This document shows positions 14,508 through 27,446 of a stretch of 64,000 nucleotides of DNA, piece after piece. The DNA lies in contig OZ024743.1 of NCBI GenBank assembly GCA_964016885.1, positions 79,360,001 to 79,424,000 of the forward strand. The letters run 5' to 3'. The translations under genes were made by a program, and so were the position numbers. The DNA comes from Eledone cirrhosa (taxonomy: Eukaryota). A model generated the notes under the pieces. That model had not been told where the DNA came from, searched no databases, and was given only the letters and a program-made list of their open reading frames with translations. How positions within the stretch are numbered: position 1 is the first letter of the stretch; every line of letters starts with the position of its first letter.

Positions 14508-14684
14508 ACATTGAAAGTAAAGGATGTCAGGAATGATACAAAATCAAACATATGTCTTGTCTCTAAAAACAGCCATTAATTTAATAAGATACTCAACGAA
14601 TTATGTAATCTTACATTTAGTACAGACTGTCTCTAGTTTTAAGTTTCGATGTATTTTGATGCACACTTATGTATGTATGGATAT

Positions 14685-14735
<51 letters not shown>

Positions 14736-14737
14736 TT

Positions 14738-16635
14738 TACAACGTGATGACCAGAAACAGGAGGTATTCAAGATTGCGAGGCAGTGTGTCAGAGATAGTT
14801 GTGATGTCATTGGAGAGAAGTGTATCCGGAATGATAAAGGTGAGCTTGCCCTCACAAGTGCTGAGAAGAAAGATGCATGGAAGAGTCATTATGATAGATT
14901 ACTAAATGAGGAGAATGCATGGGAAGAAGAGACCCTACCCCAAGTAGACCCTATAGAGGGACCAGCAGTACAAGTCAGCGGCAGCGTAGTAAGTAAGGCA
15001 ATCAGAGATATGAAGATGGGGAAGGCAACCGGTCCATCGGGTATAGCTGCCGAGATGCTGAAGGCATCTGGGTCTGTAGATCACACTATAACCACACGTA
15101 TCGTTAACCAGGTAATACTAGAAGGGGCCATACCAAAAGATTGGTGCAGTAGCATCATTGTCAACTGCTACAAAGGTAAAGGCGATGCACTAGATAGAGG
15201 AAACTATAGAGGTATAAAGTTGATGGACCAGGTCATGAAAGTAACAGAAAGAGTTATAGCACAGCTGATTAGGGACCGGGTGAAAATAGACGAGATGCAA
15301 TTTGGGTTTGTACCAGGAAGAGGCACCACTGATGCCCTCTTCCTTGTGAGGCAATTACATGAAAAGTACCTAGCTAAAAGTAAGCCACTCTACTTGGCAT
15401 TTGTCGACCTTGAGAAAGCCTTTGACAGAGTTCCACGTGCTGTAATCTGGTGGGCTCTTAGAAAACTAGTAGATGAATGGCTTGTGAAAGCGGTACAAGC
15501 CATGTATAGGGGAGCAGTCAGCAAAGTTAGGATTAGCAATGAGTATAGCGAGGAATTTAGCGTACAGGTTGGGGTCCACCAGGGCTCTGTTCTTAGCCCT
15601 CTCCTGTTCATCATAGTCCTGCAGGCAATAACGGAGGAATTTAAGACCGGATGCCCATGGGAACTCCTGTATGCTGATGACCTCGCACTCATAGCTGAAT
15701 CTATGGTAGAACTATAGAATAAATTCCAAACCTGGAAGCAGGGACTAGAAAGAAAGGGTCTCAAAGTCAACATGACAAAGACTAAGGTCCTTGTAAGTAG
15801 ACGAGAAAACAGAACCCAGATCCCCTCAGGGAAAAGGCCTTGCTCAGTATGTAGGAAAGGTGTAGGTAGGAACTCCATTCTCTGCCCCAAATGCAAACAA
15901 TGGGTACACAAGAGATGTAGCGGGATCTCAGGAAGCTTAATTAAGAATGTAGGATTCACATGCAACAGCTGTGCTGAGACAGCAAACAGCAAACAGCCAC
16001 AGGAAACAAGTACCACCAATCTCTGGGAGGGCCCTGTAGAAACAGTAGACAGCTTCTGCTACCTAAGTGACCGAATTAGCAACGGAGGTGGGTGTTCAGA
16101 AAGTGCAATAACTAGGGTAAGAACGGGATGGAAGAAGTTTAGGGAACTACTACCACTGCTAGCTGCAAAAGGCTTCTCCCTCAGAATGAAAGGCAGACTG
16201 TATGATGCGTGTATCCGAACAGCGATGCTGCATGGTAGCGAGACCTGGGCGCTGAAGGTGGAAGACTTACGTAGATTAGAGAGAAACGAAGCCTGCATGC
16301 TCCGATGGATGTGTAACAATAATATACGTGAACGACAAAGCATAAATGAATTGAGAGAGAGACTGAGCATAAGAGGAATCAAATGCTGTGTGCAGGAGAG
16401 GCAGTTGCGCTGGTATGGACATGTGATGCGTATGAAGGATGATAGCTGCATAAAAAGGTGCAGAGCACTAGAAGTTGATGGAAACCGCGGAGTGGGGAGA
16501 CCCAAGATGACCTGGGATGAGGTGATAAAAGCCGACCTTACCCAATTACACCTCTCAAAGACAATGACACACGACCGTGACTTCTGGCGTCACGCAGTAA
16601 TACAGAGTACCCGACCTCCCATGGGTACAAGCTGA
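14738..16635 (+). pseudogene. 5'-truncated RTE-clade LINE reverse transcriptase ORF with one in-frame TAG
   Basis: NYRGIKL, QFGF, FVDLEKAFDRV, GVHQGSVLSPLLF, YADDL, LHGSETW, RWYGHVMR; TAG at 15715-15717 is in frame with ORF 15772-16635; no APE domain present. Confidence 0.95.
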
Positions 16636-18754: not shown

Positions 18755-18884
<130 letters not shown>

Positions 18885-18972
18885 CCCAGCATGGCCTCAG
18901 CCGGATGGCTGAAACAGGTAAAATAGTAAAAGAGTATATATATATATATATATATATATAGGAACCAGTAAG

Positions 18973-19066
18973 ACCCCGACAGCTGAGCTCAAGCCGTTTC
19001 GACGGCTAATTCTGGACTAAATGAAAATTTATCCTGGTATTTAAATAGCCGATCTTCTCAAGGGGT
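18973..19066 (-). ncRNA. Type I hammerhead motif with U3-A8 core (mirror copy)
   Basis: Exact reverse complement of 21996-22089. Confidence 0.7.
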
Positions 19067-20167
19067 AATTCCATATATGGTCAAAGTGATTGTCAAAAAT
19101 CAGTAGTAATTCTGTGGTTGCAAATTAGTAGGGGAGATGGTGGCTAAACCTGCCAGTAGGAGAAAGAGGGGAGGGGTGGAGTAGACCCAATCAAGCGTTG
19201 GTAGTGCCAGCTACAGCTGGGCATGAGGTCAAAGAAGATACAGGGGAGGGGGAGGAAGTCGGAACAGTAGGTAGAACAAAGAGGGGTAGAAACAGGAAAG
19301 AAAAAATACTGAGAGTGAAGAAAAGCAAATAAGTGTAAAGAAAAAAGTAAAGTAAATTAAATTCTACGACCTAGGTGTCAGGCTATTGTTAGGCGAGAAT
19401 AAAATAAAGAAAGAAAGAAAGAAGTAAAGAAATAAATAAATAAATAAATAAGGAAATAAGTAAAAGAACTAGGTGGGACGGAAAAGGCAAGGACCCTTTT
19501 AAGAGGTATAAGTACGTAAATGATACGGTGACGGGTCAACAAAAGGGGCCAAAATACTAAAGAGACTACCACGAAATAAACAATAAAGGTTTCCATCCCG
19601 GGCCAGCAACGACCCAGTGCAGCAAAGTGAACTTGTACGAGATAATAATTCTGAGTCCCGAGAAAAATATATACTAATGCTAACTCTAAAAGATCTAAAA
19701 CAAGCTACATGAAAGTTCGTACGAAATAAAGGTAGAATACGGAGAAATAAATTCAGAATCCACCCCGCCCAGAAGAAAAGCGAAGCAAGAAATACTGAAA
19801 CGAAAAAATAAGGCATAAGTGCCACTAAGAAATATAGAGGGCACAGAGAATAGTGGGAGCGGTCGGAAAAAGGGGGCAAGTATCCGGGGTCTAAGCCAAC
19901 TGCTATAAAGGGCGGAGTCCGCCAAATCTATCATAGACTAGGGGAGGGGGTGGTGGGGGTACTAAGGCTACATGGGGCCAAAGGGCAGCCTCGGGTGGGC
20001 GAGAAAAGACGCCGACAAAGGAGAAGAGCTGGGGTAGAAGGACAAAGGAGAGAGGGGGGAAGGAAATAAAGGAAGCGATAAAAGAATACAAAGAAGATCT
20101 TACGTCTTCCTTGGCAAGCAGGGGTTACCCATTGCAAAATCGGCAAGTGGGGTGTTATAGCCCTAGT

Positions 20168-20590
20168 CTACCCCCCCCCCCCCCCCCCCGGGTCATTATG
20201 GGGTTTGAGGGCGAGGTAAGTCCTACGCAATCTATGTTTACATGCAGTAACCAGTTCATCTTTCTTGTTTAGGAGTTGGTCCGTCGAAAACAGCATTTGT
20301 AAGGTTTCCTCCGAGCATAAATTGCACGGACGGCGTCCTCCCGTGTAAGAATTGGCTCTGGACAGTAATCTCCAAGTGAGATCATAGGTGATGTTGTTGT
20401 CCTTGAGGTCCCATATGTGGCCCGAAAGTGTAGTGGCGTGACGCCGGGCCGGGTTTCGGAAGGTATGGTGTAGCCGGGTCTTGAAGTCACATGCGGTAAG
20501 TCCTATATAGGCTTTGTTGGAGGTATCCGTCCTCACGTTGCACTGGTAGATCACATTACGGTCTCTGCATCTATTGTCGAGTGGGTAAAA
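20168..20590 (-). pseudogene. GIY-YIG endonuclease C-terminal fragment of a PLE (Naiad-type motifs)
   Basis: PLDNRC-NVIY-YIGLT-FKTR, LSGHIWDLK, CNLCSEE, LLNKKDELVTACKH; no RT present. Confidence 0.85.
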
Positions 20591-21995
20591 CATAGACATA
20601 CCTTCCGAAACCCGGCCCGGCGTCACGCCACTACACTTTCGGGCCACATATGGGACCTCAAGGACAACAACATCACCTATGATCTCACTTGGAGATTACT
20701 GTCCAGAGCCAATTCTTACACGGGAGGACGCCGTCCGTGCAATTTATGCTCGGAGGAAACTTTACAAATGCTGTTTTCGACGGACCAACTCCTAAACAAG
20801 AAAGATGAACTGGTTACTGCATGTAAACATAGATTGCGTAGGACTTACCTCGCCCTCAAACCCCATAATGACCCGGGGGGGGGGGTAGACTAGGGCTATA
20901 ACACCCCACTTGCCGATTTTGCAATGGGTAACCCCTGCTTGCCAAGGAAGACGTAAGATCTTCTTTGTATTCTTTTATCGCTTCCTTTATTTCCTTCCCC
21001 CCTCTCTCCTTTGTCCTTCTACCCCAGCTCTTCTCCTTTGTCGGCGTCTTTTCTCGCCCACCCGAGGCTGCCCTTTGGCCCCATGTAGCCTTAGTACCCC
21101 CACCACCCCCTCCCCTAGTCTATGATAGATTTGGCGGACTCCGCCCTTTATAGCAGTTGGCTTAGACCCCGGATACTTGCCCCCTTTTTCCGACCGCTCC
21201 CACTATTCTCTGTGCCCTCTATATTTCTTAGTGGCACTTATGCCTTATTTTTTCGTTTCAGTATTTCTTGCTTCGCTTTTCTTCTGGGCGGGGTGGATTC
21301 TGAATTTATTTCTCCGTATTCTACCTTTATTTCGTACGAACTTTCATGTAGCTTGTTTTAGATCTTTTAGAGTTAGCATTAGTATATATTTTTCTCGGGA
21401 CTCAGAATTATTATCTCGTACAAGTTCACTTTGCTGCACTGGGTCGTTGCTGGCCCGGGATGGAAACCTTTATTGTTTATTTCGTGGTAGTCTCTTTAGT
21501 ATTTTGGCCCCTTTTGTTGACCCGTCACCGTATCATTTACGTACTTATACCTCTTAAAAGGGTCCTTGCCTTTTCCGTCCCACCTAGTTCTTTTACTTAT
21601 TTCCTTATTTATTTATTTATTTATTTCTTTACTTCTTTCTTTCTTTCTTTATTTTATTCTCGCCTAACAATAGCCTGACACCTAGGTCGTAGAATTTAAT
21701 TTACTTTACTTTTTTCTTTACACTTATTTGCTTTTCTTCACTCTCAGTATTTTTTCTTTCCTGTTTCTACCCCTCTTTGTTCTACCTACTGTTCCGACTT
21801 CCTCCCCCTCCCCCTCCCCTGTATCTTCTTTGACCTCATGCCCAGCTGTAGCTGGCACTACCAACGCTTGATTGGGTCTACTCCACCCCTCCCCTCTTTC
21901 TCCTACTGGCAGGTTTAGCCACCATCTCCCCTACTAATTTGCAACCACAGAATTACTACTGATTTTTGACAATCACTTTGACCATATATGGAATT

Positions 21996-22089
21996 ACCCC
22001 TTGAGAAGATCGGCTATTTAAATACCAGGATAAATTTTCATTTAGTCCAGAATTAGCCGTCGAAACGGCTTGAGCTCAGCTGTCGGGGT
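21996..22089 (+). ncRNA. Type I hammerhead motif with U3-A8 core in the PLE terminus
   Basis: ACCCC-TTGAGAA-GATCGGCTA...TAGCCGTC-GAAA-CGGC-TTGAGCTCA-GCTG-TC-GGGGT. Confidence 0.7.
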
Positions 22090-22180
22090 CTTACTGGTTC
22101 CTATTACCCACTCTACTACCTCAAGTATTGAGTACTTTGGTGCGTTATGGTCCACCTGGTTCCTTACCACATTTCTTTCG

Positions 22181-22243
<63 letters not shown>

Positions 22244-22362
22244 GGAGGTGAGTTTTATTGTAGTACAATAAAGCAATGCAGATATCGGATAAGAAGCATC
22301 CTACAGTTTGTAGGACTGGAGTATAAATAATATATAAGATCAAAAGATGGTTAAAAGAGTTC

Positions 22363-22447
22363 CATGTATTTTATTATGCGCATTTCAAAAACAAATATCA
22401 TCATGCAATAACATTTGCGTTTTCGTCAGATAAAATAGGGAGACATG
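22363..22447 (-). ncRNA. Minimal type I hammerhead ribozyme motif
   Basis: TATTTTAT-CTGACGA-AAACGCAAATGTTATT...GATGATATTTGTTTTT-GAAA-TGCGCA-TA-ATAAAATA. Confidence 0.8.
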
Positions 22448-22551
22448 ATATGAAGGTTAAAACACACTTGTGAATAGTGCAGTTATATGAATAGTGCAGA
22501 ATATGTTGATTTAAAACTGCACTATTCACAAGTGTGTTTTAACCTTCATAT

Positions 22552-22636
22552 CATGTTTCCCTATTTTATCTGACGAAAACGAAAATGTTATTGCATGATG
22601 ATATTTGTTTTTGAAATGCGCATAATAAAATACATG
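22552..22636 (+). ncRNA. Minimal type I hammerhead ribozyme motif
   Basis: Stem I TATTTTAT/ATAAAATA (extended by CATG/CATG past a bulge), CTGACGA at 22570, GAAA at 22613, palindromic TGCGCA, AUA cleavage triplet. Confidence 0.8.
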
Positions 22637-22660
22637 GAACTCTTGTAACCATCTTTTGAT

Positions 22661-22730
<70 letters not shown>

Positions 22731-22743
<13 letters not shown>

Positions 22744-24746
22744 AAGTGAAGTTGGGCGTTGTTTGTTTGTTTGGTGTCCCGAACTTGCAGGCTACACCGT
22801 TCATCTGATTTTCATGAAACTTGACACATATATAAAACTCGAGCCGTACATTGGAATAGGCTGCAGAAGCCAAAAATCGATATTTTCAAAATTCGTCCGA
22901 TTTCGATGAAACTTGATGCAAGTGTGGATTTTGATCCGGTGATTTACGTGGGCTACATTTAATTTCCAAAAATCGATAATCGGACCCCAGAGGCAATATT
23001 CCGGCAACCGAAAAACGCCATTCTTCTTGCTTCCATTTGTCGCGACTCCCGCCATGCAAAAAATGTTCAATCTATCAGGATTATCCACCGTAAGTTTCTT
23101 TAAATTAACGCTCACCATATTCAGCAAACCTTTTATGCCGATTCTTCCATTTCTTATATAAGGACTATCAAGACTATACCGACGTGCATCATCCTGTATT
23201 GCGCCCAGTCTTCTCAAGCGATCATCGAGCCTACATGCGCTCTCTTCATTCCCGTGGTCCCGCTACCGTAGAATAATGAGGCATCCGTCAACCCCTGCCC
23301 TTTCCCTTCCCTGCACGCCGTCGTCCCACTCCATCGTTGTGCATCACCATGCGCATCAATGCTCTGTCAGCCGCCATCCCCCCCTCGGCCCTTTCTTTTG
23401 CCTACCCGCAGTGCTCCTTCAAGACTGCCATGGCTCACCATGCGGCATCCTTGCCACCCTCCACCCCTGCCCTCTTCCTTGCCTGCTGGCCGTCGTCCCA
23501 CTTCATCGTCATGCCTCAGGATGCCACATCCATGCACTGTCTGCCACCATCCCCTCCAAAGCCCTTTCTTTTGCCCCTACCGCCGTGCTCCTTCAAGACT
23601 CCCATGGCTATCTATTCCACATCCATTCCTTGCCACCCGCTTAAACGTCATCAGCTTATTGTTGCCCAATTTGACCACCGATTTTCGCAGGCTAAACACA
23701 ATACCAACATGCACGATAGTCCATGGTAAATCTTTTTAATTACATGTTCATCATGCTAAGCAAAGGATGAATAGCAACACTTTCATTTCTCCTGACATGC
23801 CTTTCTGTCAATTATAGCCGAGAAGCATCCTGTGTAGCATCGCGTCTTCTCAAGCGAACAGCGTGCCTTCCACTGTCCTCATAATTGACTCACAACGCCG
23901 CATCTATTCTCTGCGACGCCCCTAAACATCATCAGCATGGCGTATTTTTCTGCCGCGTTTATCCGGCCCTCATTCTAGGCTATAAACAACAAAACCGCAC
24001 GATGATGCTGCGTAAGTCTATTTAAATTAATGGTCAACATGTTCAGCAAAACAATTGTACCAATTCTTCCTCTTCACCTCCAAGGCCTATCCATTACATC
24101 TTAGAGGTCGGGATTCGCAATTTCTACGATTTCAATATTGACACAACAATCCGTCAGGTTTTTCGACACATGTTGCTCCGATAGGAATATCAACGCGATT
24201 TTCACTTAATTCGTAAGTGTTCAGTCTTCCGTGTGCTTTTATTTTTTATTGATACAACACCGACTACAATAATCTAACTTCACTTTGTAGGCTAGACGCG
24301 AATCACAAGGAAAACAATTCTCTGATATACAACCCCACCAAATTCTTTGGTCTACCTAGATTTCAATGGCTATATCCTTTGCTTTTGTACGGTTGTACAT
24401 TTGACAATATCGCAAAACATTATTCCACTTGATTCTTACCTTTCAGCTATGAATTGGGCAGTGCCAAAATATCCCGGTTTATTTGCGTGCAAATTTTTTG
24501 TATCTTATGAATGGAGAATCGAAAACCCTTTTTCTTCTAACCTGATACTTGCGTTACACATGCTCCATGGATGTTTGTGGACTATTTTTTCAAAATACCA
24601 ATATCACAGATTGGAGCACAAAAAGAAACGTTTGTTCTTCATTTATTTCGGTTAAAACATCCTGCTGGAATTTAGTGCAGACCCGTTTTAATCCAGCGCC
24701 TTATAACTCCGAGTGTAACCGGGTACACCAGCTAGAAAGACAAATG
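22731..24746 (+). mobile_element. 5' portion of a non-autonomous Helitron-like element
   Basis: TATATATAAAGTGAAG...(GTTT)n start resembles non-autonomous Helitron 5' ends; linked by a 181-bp overlap to the CTAG-ending 3' part at 25534-26414. Confidence 0.55.
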
Positions 24747-25415
24747 AACACTGGCGAGACCTTCAAGATAGTAAGGAATCATCTGTACTCTACCAACATG
24801 CTAAAATAGAACACAAGGGTAAATTAGAGAACATAGAAATAAAAATAGAATCTACACACAGAAAAGACGCAATGTTTAGACAAATTACAGAGGCAATAAA
24901 CATAAAAGAATTACAACCAAAATTAAATAGAAAATATGAGTGGAACAGCAACATCACAACTTACAATTAAGGCCAAAATGAAAACACACACACACATAGA
25001 ACAAACAACCAACCAGTAACATGTAAATAAACAAATAAATAAATGAACATAAACACACACAGACACCCGGATGTGGCGCATGCGCAGACTGAGCACACAA
25101 CACACACACAGAAACAAAATGGTGTAGGACAGAACAAAGGAGAGGCACAGAAACAAAGAAAGGAATCCCCAGTCACTGAAGAGGTCACAGAGTGTGTGAC
25201 GAAAGAACTATGACTATATATAAACAACTATCTGGTTGTGGAACCAACCAACCAACCAGAAATTTATAAATTTATAAATTTATTATAATAAATTGAAGTG
25301 AAAGCTACTGGTGCGTGTGTTTCTTATTGGCAACATGACCCTCCCAAAGTATAACAATATCGGTTTCAACACACGGTTTCAGATAAAGAATCTTGCTAAA
25401 CAAATTCAGAAACGA
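24742..25415 (+). mobile_element. Penelope-like element, short 5'-truncated copy
   Basis: 24742-25360 nearly identical to 26662-27291. Confidence 0.9.
25171..25215 (+). ncRNA. Minimal type I hammerhead motif in PLE pLTR
   Basis: AGTCA-CTGAAGA-GGTCACA-GAGTG-TGTGAC-GAAA-GAAC-TA-TGACT. Confidence 0.75.
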
Positions 25416-26461: not shown

Positions 26462-26890
26462 GTAAAAACACTTATTAGCAAGACATACCCTTTTCAAAGA
26501 CCCTCATGTATAGATAAGAAATGTATAACCTGTAAAATAAGCCCCCATATTAACTGTAAAACTAGAAATGTAGTGTATAGCATAAGATGTACTGAAGGAC
26601 AATGTAGAGATAAAAATATAGTGTACATAGGTGAGACAGCTCGTAGTGTAGGGGAATGGATAAATGAACACTGGCGAGACCTTCAAGATAGTAAAGAATC
26701 ATCTGTACTCTACCAACATGCTAAAATAGAACACAAGGGTAAATTAGAGAACATAGAAATAAAAATAGAATCTACACACAGAAAAGACGCAATGTTTAGA
26801 CAAATTACAGAGGCAATAAACATAAAAGAATTACAACCAAAATTAAATAGAAAATATGAGTGGAACAGCAACATCACAACTTACAATTAA
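26462..26890 (+). pseudogene. GIY-YIG endonuclease fragment of a PLE with Cys-rich linker
   Basis: CIDKKCITC, NVVYSIRC, VYIGETAR, EH, EAINI, LNRKYEW; W occupies the usual catalytic R position (GEWINEH). Confidence 0.85.
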
Positions 26891-27090
26891 GGCCAAAATG
26901 AAAACACACACACACATAGAACAAACAACCAACCAGTAACATGTAAATAAACAAATAAATAAATGAACATAAACACACACAGACACCCGGATGTGGCGCA
27001 TGCGCAGACTGAGCACACAACACACACACAGAAACAAAATGGCGTAGGACAGAACAAAGGAGAGGCACAGAAACAAAGAAAGGAATCCCC

Positions 27091-27134
27091 AGTCACTGAA
27101 GAGGTCACAGAGTGTGTGACGAAAGAACTATGAC
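27091..27134 (+). ncRNA. Minimal type I hammerhead motif in PLE pLTR
   Basis: Same as 25171-25215, with 4-bp stem I GTCA/TGAC. Confidence 0.75.
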
Positions 27135-27446
27135 AATATCTAAACAACTATCTGGTTGTGGAACCAACCAACCAACCAGAAATTTATAAATTTATAAATT
27201 TATTATAAATTTATTATAATAAATTGAAGTGAAAGCTACTGGTGCGTGTGTTTCTTATTGGCAACATGACCCTCCCAAAGTATAACAATATTTATATATA
27301 TATAATTTTATATATCTATATTTATATATATATATATATATTTATATTTTTTAAATATTTTTCTCAATGGATGAATGATTCTGAGTAGAAAAGAGTGTGT
27401 ATAGGTGGTGGTGTAGGTGGTGGTAGTAGAGGTGGTGGTAGTGGTA

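Follow-up and report, generated by a model that had tools for sequence, protein, structure and literature searches.

We identified a hammerhead-shaped RNA motif with a non-canonical U3-A8 core in each arm of a two-armed Penelope-like insertion in the window, the 64,000-nt stretch of DNA analyzed here. The motif is probably a hammerhead that lies within the pseudo-LTR of a Penelope-like retrotransposon of the Hydra clade and is predicted to cut the element's transcript after the GUC that ends at 22084. Judged by its letters, it is a real hammerhead-shaped RNA element for which self-cutting is predicted, and the identification is based on a descriptor match, position and a pattern of conservation rather than on a profile. 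The U3-A8 core is already known, including from Penelope elements in 2014; here it is found in another clade and another host, and what our analysis adds is a history leading from C3.A8 to U3-A8 together with the conservation pattern.

The right-arm motif (21990-22101, + strand) reads GGAATT ACCCC TTGAGAA GA(T)CGGCTA, followed by a 37-nt loop and then by TAGCCGTC GAAA CGGC TTGAGCTCA GCTG T C GGGGT CTTACTGG TTCC. The first-pass annotation had described a UUGAGAA core, GAAA, GUC and three stems, all in register, and the sequence is as it stated: the 2.1-1.1 C-G pair, U4 G5 A6, A9, the G10.1-C11.1 pair, G12 A13 A14, the A15.1-U16.1 pair and C17 of the GUC triplet fall where a type I hammerhead places them. 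Eleven of the 13 fixed type I core positions match, and the two replacements (C3 to U and G8 to A) leave letters that can pair with each other. The core is surrounded by three helices of 5 (+6), 2+6 and 5-6 bp, of which helix I is open; pairing in stem II requires one bulged U, and stem III contains one G.U pair. The predicted cleavage site lies between 22084 and 22085. As had also been claimed, an identical motif, facing outward, is present in the left arm (18960-19071, − strand). The 21-mer ACCCCTTGAGAAGATCGGCTA, which extends from stem I across the core to stem II, is found at 21996 (+) and 19046 (−), two window copies against a chance expectation of 0.01. A descriptor that requires a U3-A8 core plus minimum stem lengths of 5/3/5 bp matched the full window twice, at the two arms, and had no match in any of 40 dinucleotide shuffles. 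The minimum-free-energy fold of 21990-22101 recovers the three-way junction, in which loop 2 contains a hairpin and stem I a 6-nt bulge, at an unexceptional energy (z = -0.23).

The two motifs belong to two dead, 5'-truncated copies that sit head to head within a (TA)n microsatellite. The left arm (18958-20596, − strand) retains the last ~175 ORF codons including the GIY-YIG region, ~1.2 kb of 3' UTR and the hammerhead, and ends tailless at GGTTCC (18958) directly against the left (TA)n flank (18800-18957, with TA runs at 18800-18876 and 18927-18957 and other sequence between them). The right arm (20597-22177, + strand) carries the C-terminus of the ORF followed by 3' UTR, hammerhead and a tail (22102-22177) that corresponds to the interval between the two alternative 3' ends of family copies, and it ends against the right (TA)n flank (22178-22240). 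A stop-to-stop open frame (20168-20695, − strand) encodes the left arm's piece of the C-terminal GIY-YIG nuclease (VIYQCNV..YIGLT..CNLC..CKH), and the ORF remnant in each arm comprises the last 140-175 codons only. The motif had been placed at the terminus of a young Penelope-like element copy; the end location and the young age stand, but the right arm extends past 22101 by its ~75-nt tail, to ~22177, before (TA)n begins.

The palindrome arms (18958-20467 and 20597-22104, ~1.5 kb each) are 100% complementary and flank a unique 129-nt center (20468-20596) that is counted here within the left arm. Chimeric long reads can yield such palindromes, and the 3.1-kb two-armed structure with its identical motifs could in principle be an assembly fold-back artefact. 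This explanation is very improbable given that minus/plus outward-facing pairs occur at a great many loci, with arms of varied length, that the two arms are asymmetric in the family's regular manner, one tailed and one tailless, and that inverted 5'-truncated copies have been described for Penelope-like elements (Craig et al., 2021; PMC8557442).

The tandem unit of the element (locus L031) is 3,542 nt long and consists of the hammerhead, ~190 nt, a 719-aa ORF, a 1.1-kb 3' UTR and the next hammerhead. The ORF encodes a reverse transcriptase and then a C-terminal GIY-YIG nuclease (VIY..YIG near the C-terminus), contains the motifs SDKTGN, RLRWR (RWR, not RWK), CNCPDRSIC, CNLC, CKH and LYRDDGL, and has 2,027 homologues of ~700 aa at ~40% identity. 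Reading through the 719-aa sequence revealed no CCHH pattern, and a Pfam search with the ORF and the window fragments returned no match. Traits described for the Hydra clade are a C-terminal GIY-YIG domain, no CCHH, DKT in place of DKG, RWK, a CxCx5C linker, CxxC and CxH around conserved E and N residues, LYRDDGL, and a (TA)n target (PMC8557442). The element in question has a reverse transcriptase with a C-terminal GIY-YIG domain and no CCHH, contains DKT, RWR, CxCx5C, CxxC, CxH and LYRDDGL, and inserts into (TA)n. Its ORF motifs and (TA)n target identify it as a member of the Hydra clade.

This assignment replaces the label "Naiad-like" given to the element in the first-pass annotation. Naiads are defined by an N-terminal nuclease (PMC8557442), so the label fails for an ORF whose N-terminus lacks GIY-YIG, whose nuclease is C-terminal and which contains Hydra-clade motifs. 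The element does share with Naiads a bias towards insertion into (TA)n, the presence of pseudo-LTRs and of inverted truncated copies, and a unit of ~3.5 kb, whereas the same source describes Naiads as having an N-terminal nuclease, a CxC motif and DKA and as being without a canonical hammerhead, against a C-terminal nuclease and DKT here (PMC8557442). At 3.5 kb the unit is longer than the published Hydra elements (<3 kb; PMC8557442) because of its 1.1-kb 3' UTR. A first-pass protein search of the same genome with a Hydra-clade homologue gave 92,414 candidates. The genome data suggest a very large load of Hydra-clade copies, in at least three families with intact frames of 714, 719 and ~784 aa.

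Relatives of the element carry canonical hammerheads. Across 77 metagenome loci of relatives, we found 53 sense-strand descriptor matches compared with 1.6 in shuffles, and all the compact well-formed matches among them read CTGANGA. In the same genome, the sister Hydra families B and C carry the cores CTGACGA and CTGAGGA ~230-290 nt upstream of the ORF. Because these canonical C3-G8 hammerheads stand at the same place before the ORF, the U3-A8 motif is their positional counterpart. Hydra-clade hammerheads listed in File S2 of Craig et al. (2021; PMC8557442) share with the motif the type I layout, a pseudo-LTR location immediately upstream of the ORF, the G10.1-C11.1 pair, GAAAC and a stem III that starts with AC. 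The File S2 Hydra rows examined differ in having a ctgaNga core and short loops, of 3-9 nt for loop 2 and 1-3 nt for stem III, whereas the motif described here has UUGAGAA, a 37-nt loop 2 that contains a hairpin, and 7-9 nt in the loop of stem III.

Profile searches passed over the motif. The Rfam hammerhead models had no match in the window at gathering score and none locally at E values up to 10. Loci with canonical Hydra hammerheads were likewise without an Rfam match (8 loci at gathering score, and also at E values up to 10), so that the Rfam miss of the motif says little. A covariance model that we built from 16 canonical Hydra hammerheads (R1) recovered held-out canonical Hydra hammerheads at 20.7-67 bits but, with filters off, gave the U3-A8 motif no more than 1.2 bits. 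A "cuganga" descriptor misses the motif by construction, and both Rfam and R1 miss it, but the expectation that standard searches would overlook this variant is weakened because the effect is not specific to U3-A8: Rfam misses the canonical sister hammerheads too. Hydra-clade elements can bear non-canonical hammerheads that descriptor and profile searches overlook. As such hammerheads escape searches, calls of "ribozyme-less" Penelope elements need to be rechecked with relaxed cores (U3-A8 and C3.A8) and long loop 2 arms.

The lack of an Rfam or own-model match and the ordinary fold energy would also fit a coincidental hammerhead layout in an A/T-rich 3' UTR, unrelated to Penelope hammerheads. 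We give this reading next to no credence, in that none of the 40 shuffles contained such a motif, the motif has the same position upstream of the ORF as in the sister families, and its conservation (described below) matches the hammerhead model column by column.

The first-pass annotation had called U3-A8 a natural but uncommon variant, which agrees with published descriptions. C3-G8 covaries to U3-A8 in several hammerheads (Perreault et al., 2011; PMC3088659), and the same paper, citing its reference 32, states that U3-A8 variants are active in vitro. These natural variants have the same core covariation as the motif and, in the available part of that paper, are without a link to the Hydra clade. 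U3-A8 also occurs in the Cercyon Penelope elements of Schistosoma mansoni, where the canonical descriptor misses it and ~1,300 matches were reported (Cervera and De la Pena, 2014; PMC4209133). The Cercyon hammerheads resemble ours in their core covariation, in their location in a Penelope pseudo-LTR and in being missed by the canonical descriptor, and differ in belonging to another element family and host and in being minimal, with a very short helix III (PMC4209133). Neither a C3.A8 stage nor a repeated origin of U3 appears in the part of that paper available to us (PMC4209133).

We found 2,171 exact copies of the 21-mer in the 3.0-Gb genome, compared with 0 for a reversed control. Many of these copies form minus/plus pairs, and some lie in tandem arrays with a 3,542-nt period. 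In the GAUC context, which defines the window's subfamily (2,189 copies in total), the 2,171 U3-A8 copies stand beside 14 C3.A8, 4 U3.G8 and no C3-G8 copies. The older GCUC context (1,671 in total) includes 990 C3.A8, 7 U3.G8 and 2 C3-G8 copies, which leaves 672 U3-A8 copies by difference. A still older type, omega, which has GUUC and another loop 2, is represented by 835 copies, of which 30 records were typed. A hand tally of these 30 gave 14 with C3, 13 with U3 and 1 with A3, with 2 junction-truncated records set aside, and a classifier applied to all 30 including the two truncated ones gave 14/14/2 (C/U/A). All complete omega copies among the 30 have A8, with G, C, U or A at N7.

A8 is present in all sampled subfamilies of the superfamily, each sample consisting of the first matches on contig C1 and not of a random draw; the sister Hydra families are C3-G8. 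The first-pass annotation had suggested checking whether U3 and A8 are fixed together across copies. They are not simply so: A8 is universal in the superfamily, but position 3 is C in large subfamilies.

The order of these core changes was addressed with a tree of 43 copies and 660 columns, from which the trait columns were removed and in which each half served as outgroup to the other. The tree is a ladder in which C3.A8 copies form a basal grade on both sides. U3-A8 appears once as a derived clade within the old omega type and again in a derived series (alpha, beta, gamma, delta) that ends in the window's young subfamily, so that position 3 needs two changes. An approximately unbiased (AU) test rejects a single clade of all U3 rows (p-AU 1.5e-39), and single clades of the alpha-C3A8 and omega-C3A8 copies are rejected at p = 0.0016 and p = 0.027, respectively; the groups in all these tests were named after inspection of the tree. 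The root may lie on the long branch that leads to the old U3 clade. An earlier tree without omega copies was unrootable and hinted that C3.A8 was derived, a result that was reversed when omega was used as reciprocal outgroup. For ORF-based rooting, only 1 sampled hammerhead locus has an ORF following it.

Since the sister families have a canonical C3, the tree makes a change of G8 to A, followed by two changes of C3 to U, the most economical order. On this sequence evidence, C3.A8 looks ancestral in the superfamily. We also considered U3.G8 as the ancestral stage and rejected it: the 7 + 4 copies with this core lie mid-ladder, and at least one is unlike its own partner arm. We read the U3.G8 copies as a minor side line or as point mutations. 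As a separate observation, well-formed U3.G8 hammerheads, TTGATGA and TTGACGA, occur on the minus strand of a metagenome relative (L063, 2500-2547) and on the minus strand of a locus of the same genome (L128), and U3.G8 is another possible intermediate between C3-G8 and U3-A8.

Conservation within the superfamily follows the hammerhead. A divergence estimate from BLAST-anchored distances took the place of one from a whole MAFFT alignment, in which non-homologous flanks had inflated the value. Per site, the net divergence between subfamilies is 0.16-0.19 in the upstream flanks, 0.21 in the stem I bulge, 0.12 at N7, 0.097 in loop 2, 0.051 in the 3' strand of stem III (a G-C to G.U change), 0.040 in the distal 5' strand of stem I, 0.038 in the tail, 0.023 at C17 and 0.000-0.016 in all other stems and fixed core letters. 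Stems and core have thus changed between subfamilies 10-30 times more slowly than the flanks. The 5' words are partly fixed by the search patterns and the 3' half is unbiased; in this unascertained 3' half, decay within subfamilies is roughly even, at ~0.06-0.13. The stems are nearly invariant within the superfamily, with almost no true covariation. Such a pattern is consistent with purifying selection that acts on the shape of the hammerhead in active lineages. Because the tail is conserved as well, recognition by the element's enzyme is a live alternative to catalysis.

The alternative can be put more fully as a catalytically dead relic: the G8-to-A change would have ended cleavage long ago, the fold would be kept since the reverse transcriptase or nuclease recognizes the 3'-terminal RNA (the 3' half of the hammerhead plus the tail) to start copying, and the C3-to-U changes would be neutral transitions. 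The wide spread of C3.A8 subfamilies (990 copies in one context), the conservation of the adjoining tail and the failure of profile models to score the motif are in keeping with such a relic. Against the relic, the unpaired U4 G5 A6, A9, G12 A13 A14 and C17 are fixed while N7, the sole free core position, varies, which is the hammerhead's own pattern. A pairing-restoring C-to-U change at position 3 arose twice, and U3-A8 hammerheads have been reported active in vitro (PMC3088659, citing its reference 32).

The ends of the copies bear on the same question. The window's two 3' ends, at GGTTCC and after the tail, recur throughout the family, and in tandem copies the tail runs on into the 5' UTR and then the ORF. 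They are similar to the pair of sites at which reverse transcription starts and by which the Penelope "tail" is defined (PMC11167929). Both lie beyond the predicted cut site, which means that the copied RNA was uncut at that hammerhead. Genome-wide, 3' halves of the motif number 33,269 versus ~4,700 complete 5' halves, and 27 of the 32 sampled 3'-half copies start inside the motif, at the equivalent of 22037-22057. Most 3'-half copies (for example L153, L158, L161 and L172) are tiny head-to-head palindromes in (TA)n whose junction falls inside the hammerhead, with one arm ending tailless at GGTTCC and the other after the tail. The location of both 3' ends downstream of the cut site and the excess of copies retaining the 3' half only are again what a relic maintained for recognition would leave, and hammerhead mutants of another Penelope element insert normally in vitro (PMC11167929). 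We nonetheless hold the dead relic to be a rather unlikely account of the motif. The combination of two fixed 3' ends with two-armed insertions provides abundant natural data on how these enzymes begin copying.

In the reading that we prefer, a hammerhead predicted to cut the transcript of a Hydra-clade element, the RNA shape would be kept by selection in active lineages, and the predicted cleavage after the GUC at 22084 would serve to trim read-through or tandem transcripts. Cleavage itself is likely dispensable for insertion because both types of copy end lie beyond the cut site. The growth of C3.A8 subfamilies to about a thousand complete copies means either that the mismatch is tolerated or that cleavage is dispensable. 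A run search for the motif sequence found it absent from RNA runs with raw reads (word shares of 0.06 in 1 run recorded as RNA and 0.04 in 15 presumed RNA runs). Four runs aligned to the motif consist of contigs, in which RNA ends cannot appear, and they speak neither for nor against cleavage.

Within this preferred reading, G8 would have changed to A first and C3-to-U changes would then have restored the 3-8 pair on two occasions. A stronger version, which we put forward only tentatively, is that the repeat record preserves a stepwise compensatory change of the core: a canonical C3-G8 hammerhead lost G8, the mismatched C3.A8 form still either promoted thousands of insertions or was carried along by them, two independent C3-to-U changes brought the pair back, and the lineage with the repaired core grew into the most prolific one. 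If this is true, the C.A core would be partly or conditionally active in vivo and selection would act on cleavage in Penelope elements. The subfamily ladder, C3.A8 and then U3-A8, offers natural constructs for testing the 3-8 pair in vivo. The same ladder provides a test of the role of hammerhead cleavage in Penelope retrotransposition, which in vitro work has questioned.

Several further features of the window and the genome are worth recording. The microsatellite that holds the two-armed insertion contains a second small palindrome (22330-22669; arms 22330-22487 and 22512-22669, 97% complementary) with a canonical-core CTGACGA match in each arm (22570-22624, + strand; 22375-22429, − strand) and stems that differ from those of family B (ATTTTAT versus CCTCGT). 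Two hammerhead-like matches to the canonical model, at 25171-25215 and 27091-27135 (+ strand; 19.6 and 19.7 bits; CACTGAAGAGGTCACAG..GTGACGAAAG), lie 1,920 nt apart and near a 99% direct repeat, D6 (24739-25038 and 26659-26958); they may be part of a retrozyme or of a further tandem element. Elsewhere in the genome, locus L147 (218-872) has three canonical minimal hammerheads (CTGATGA) that repeat in tandem every 312 nt next to a Hydra-family ORF, a retrozyme-like array. Upstream of the element, the window contains two open frames of 397 and 287 aa (14524-16635, + strand).
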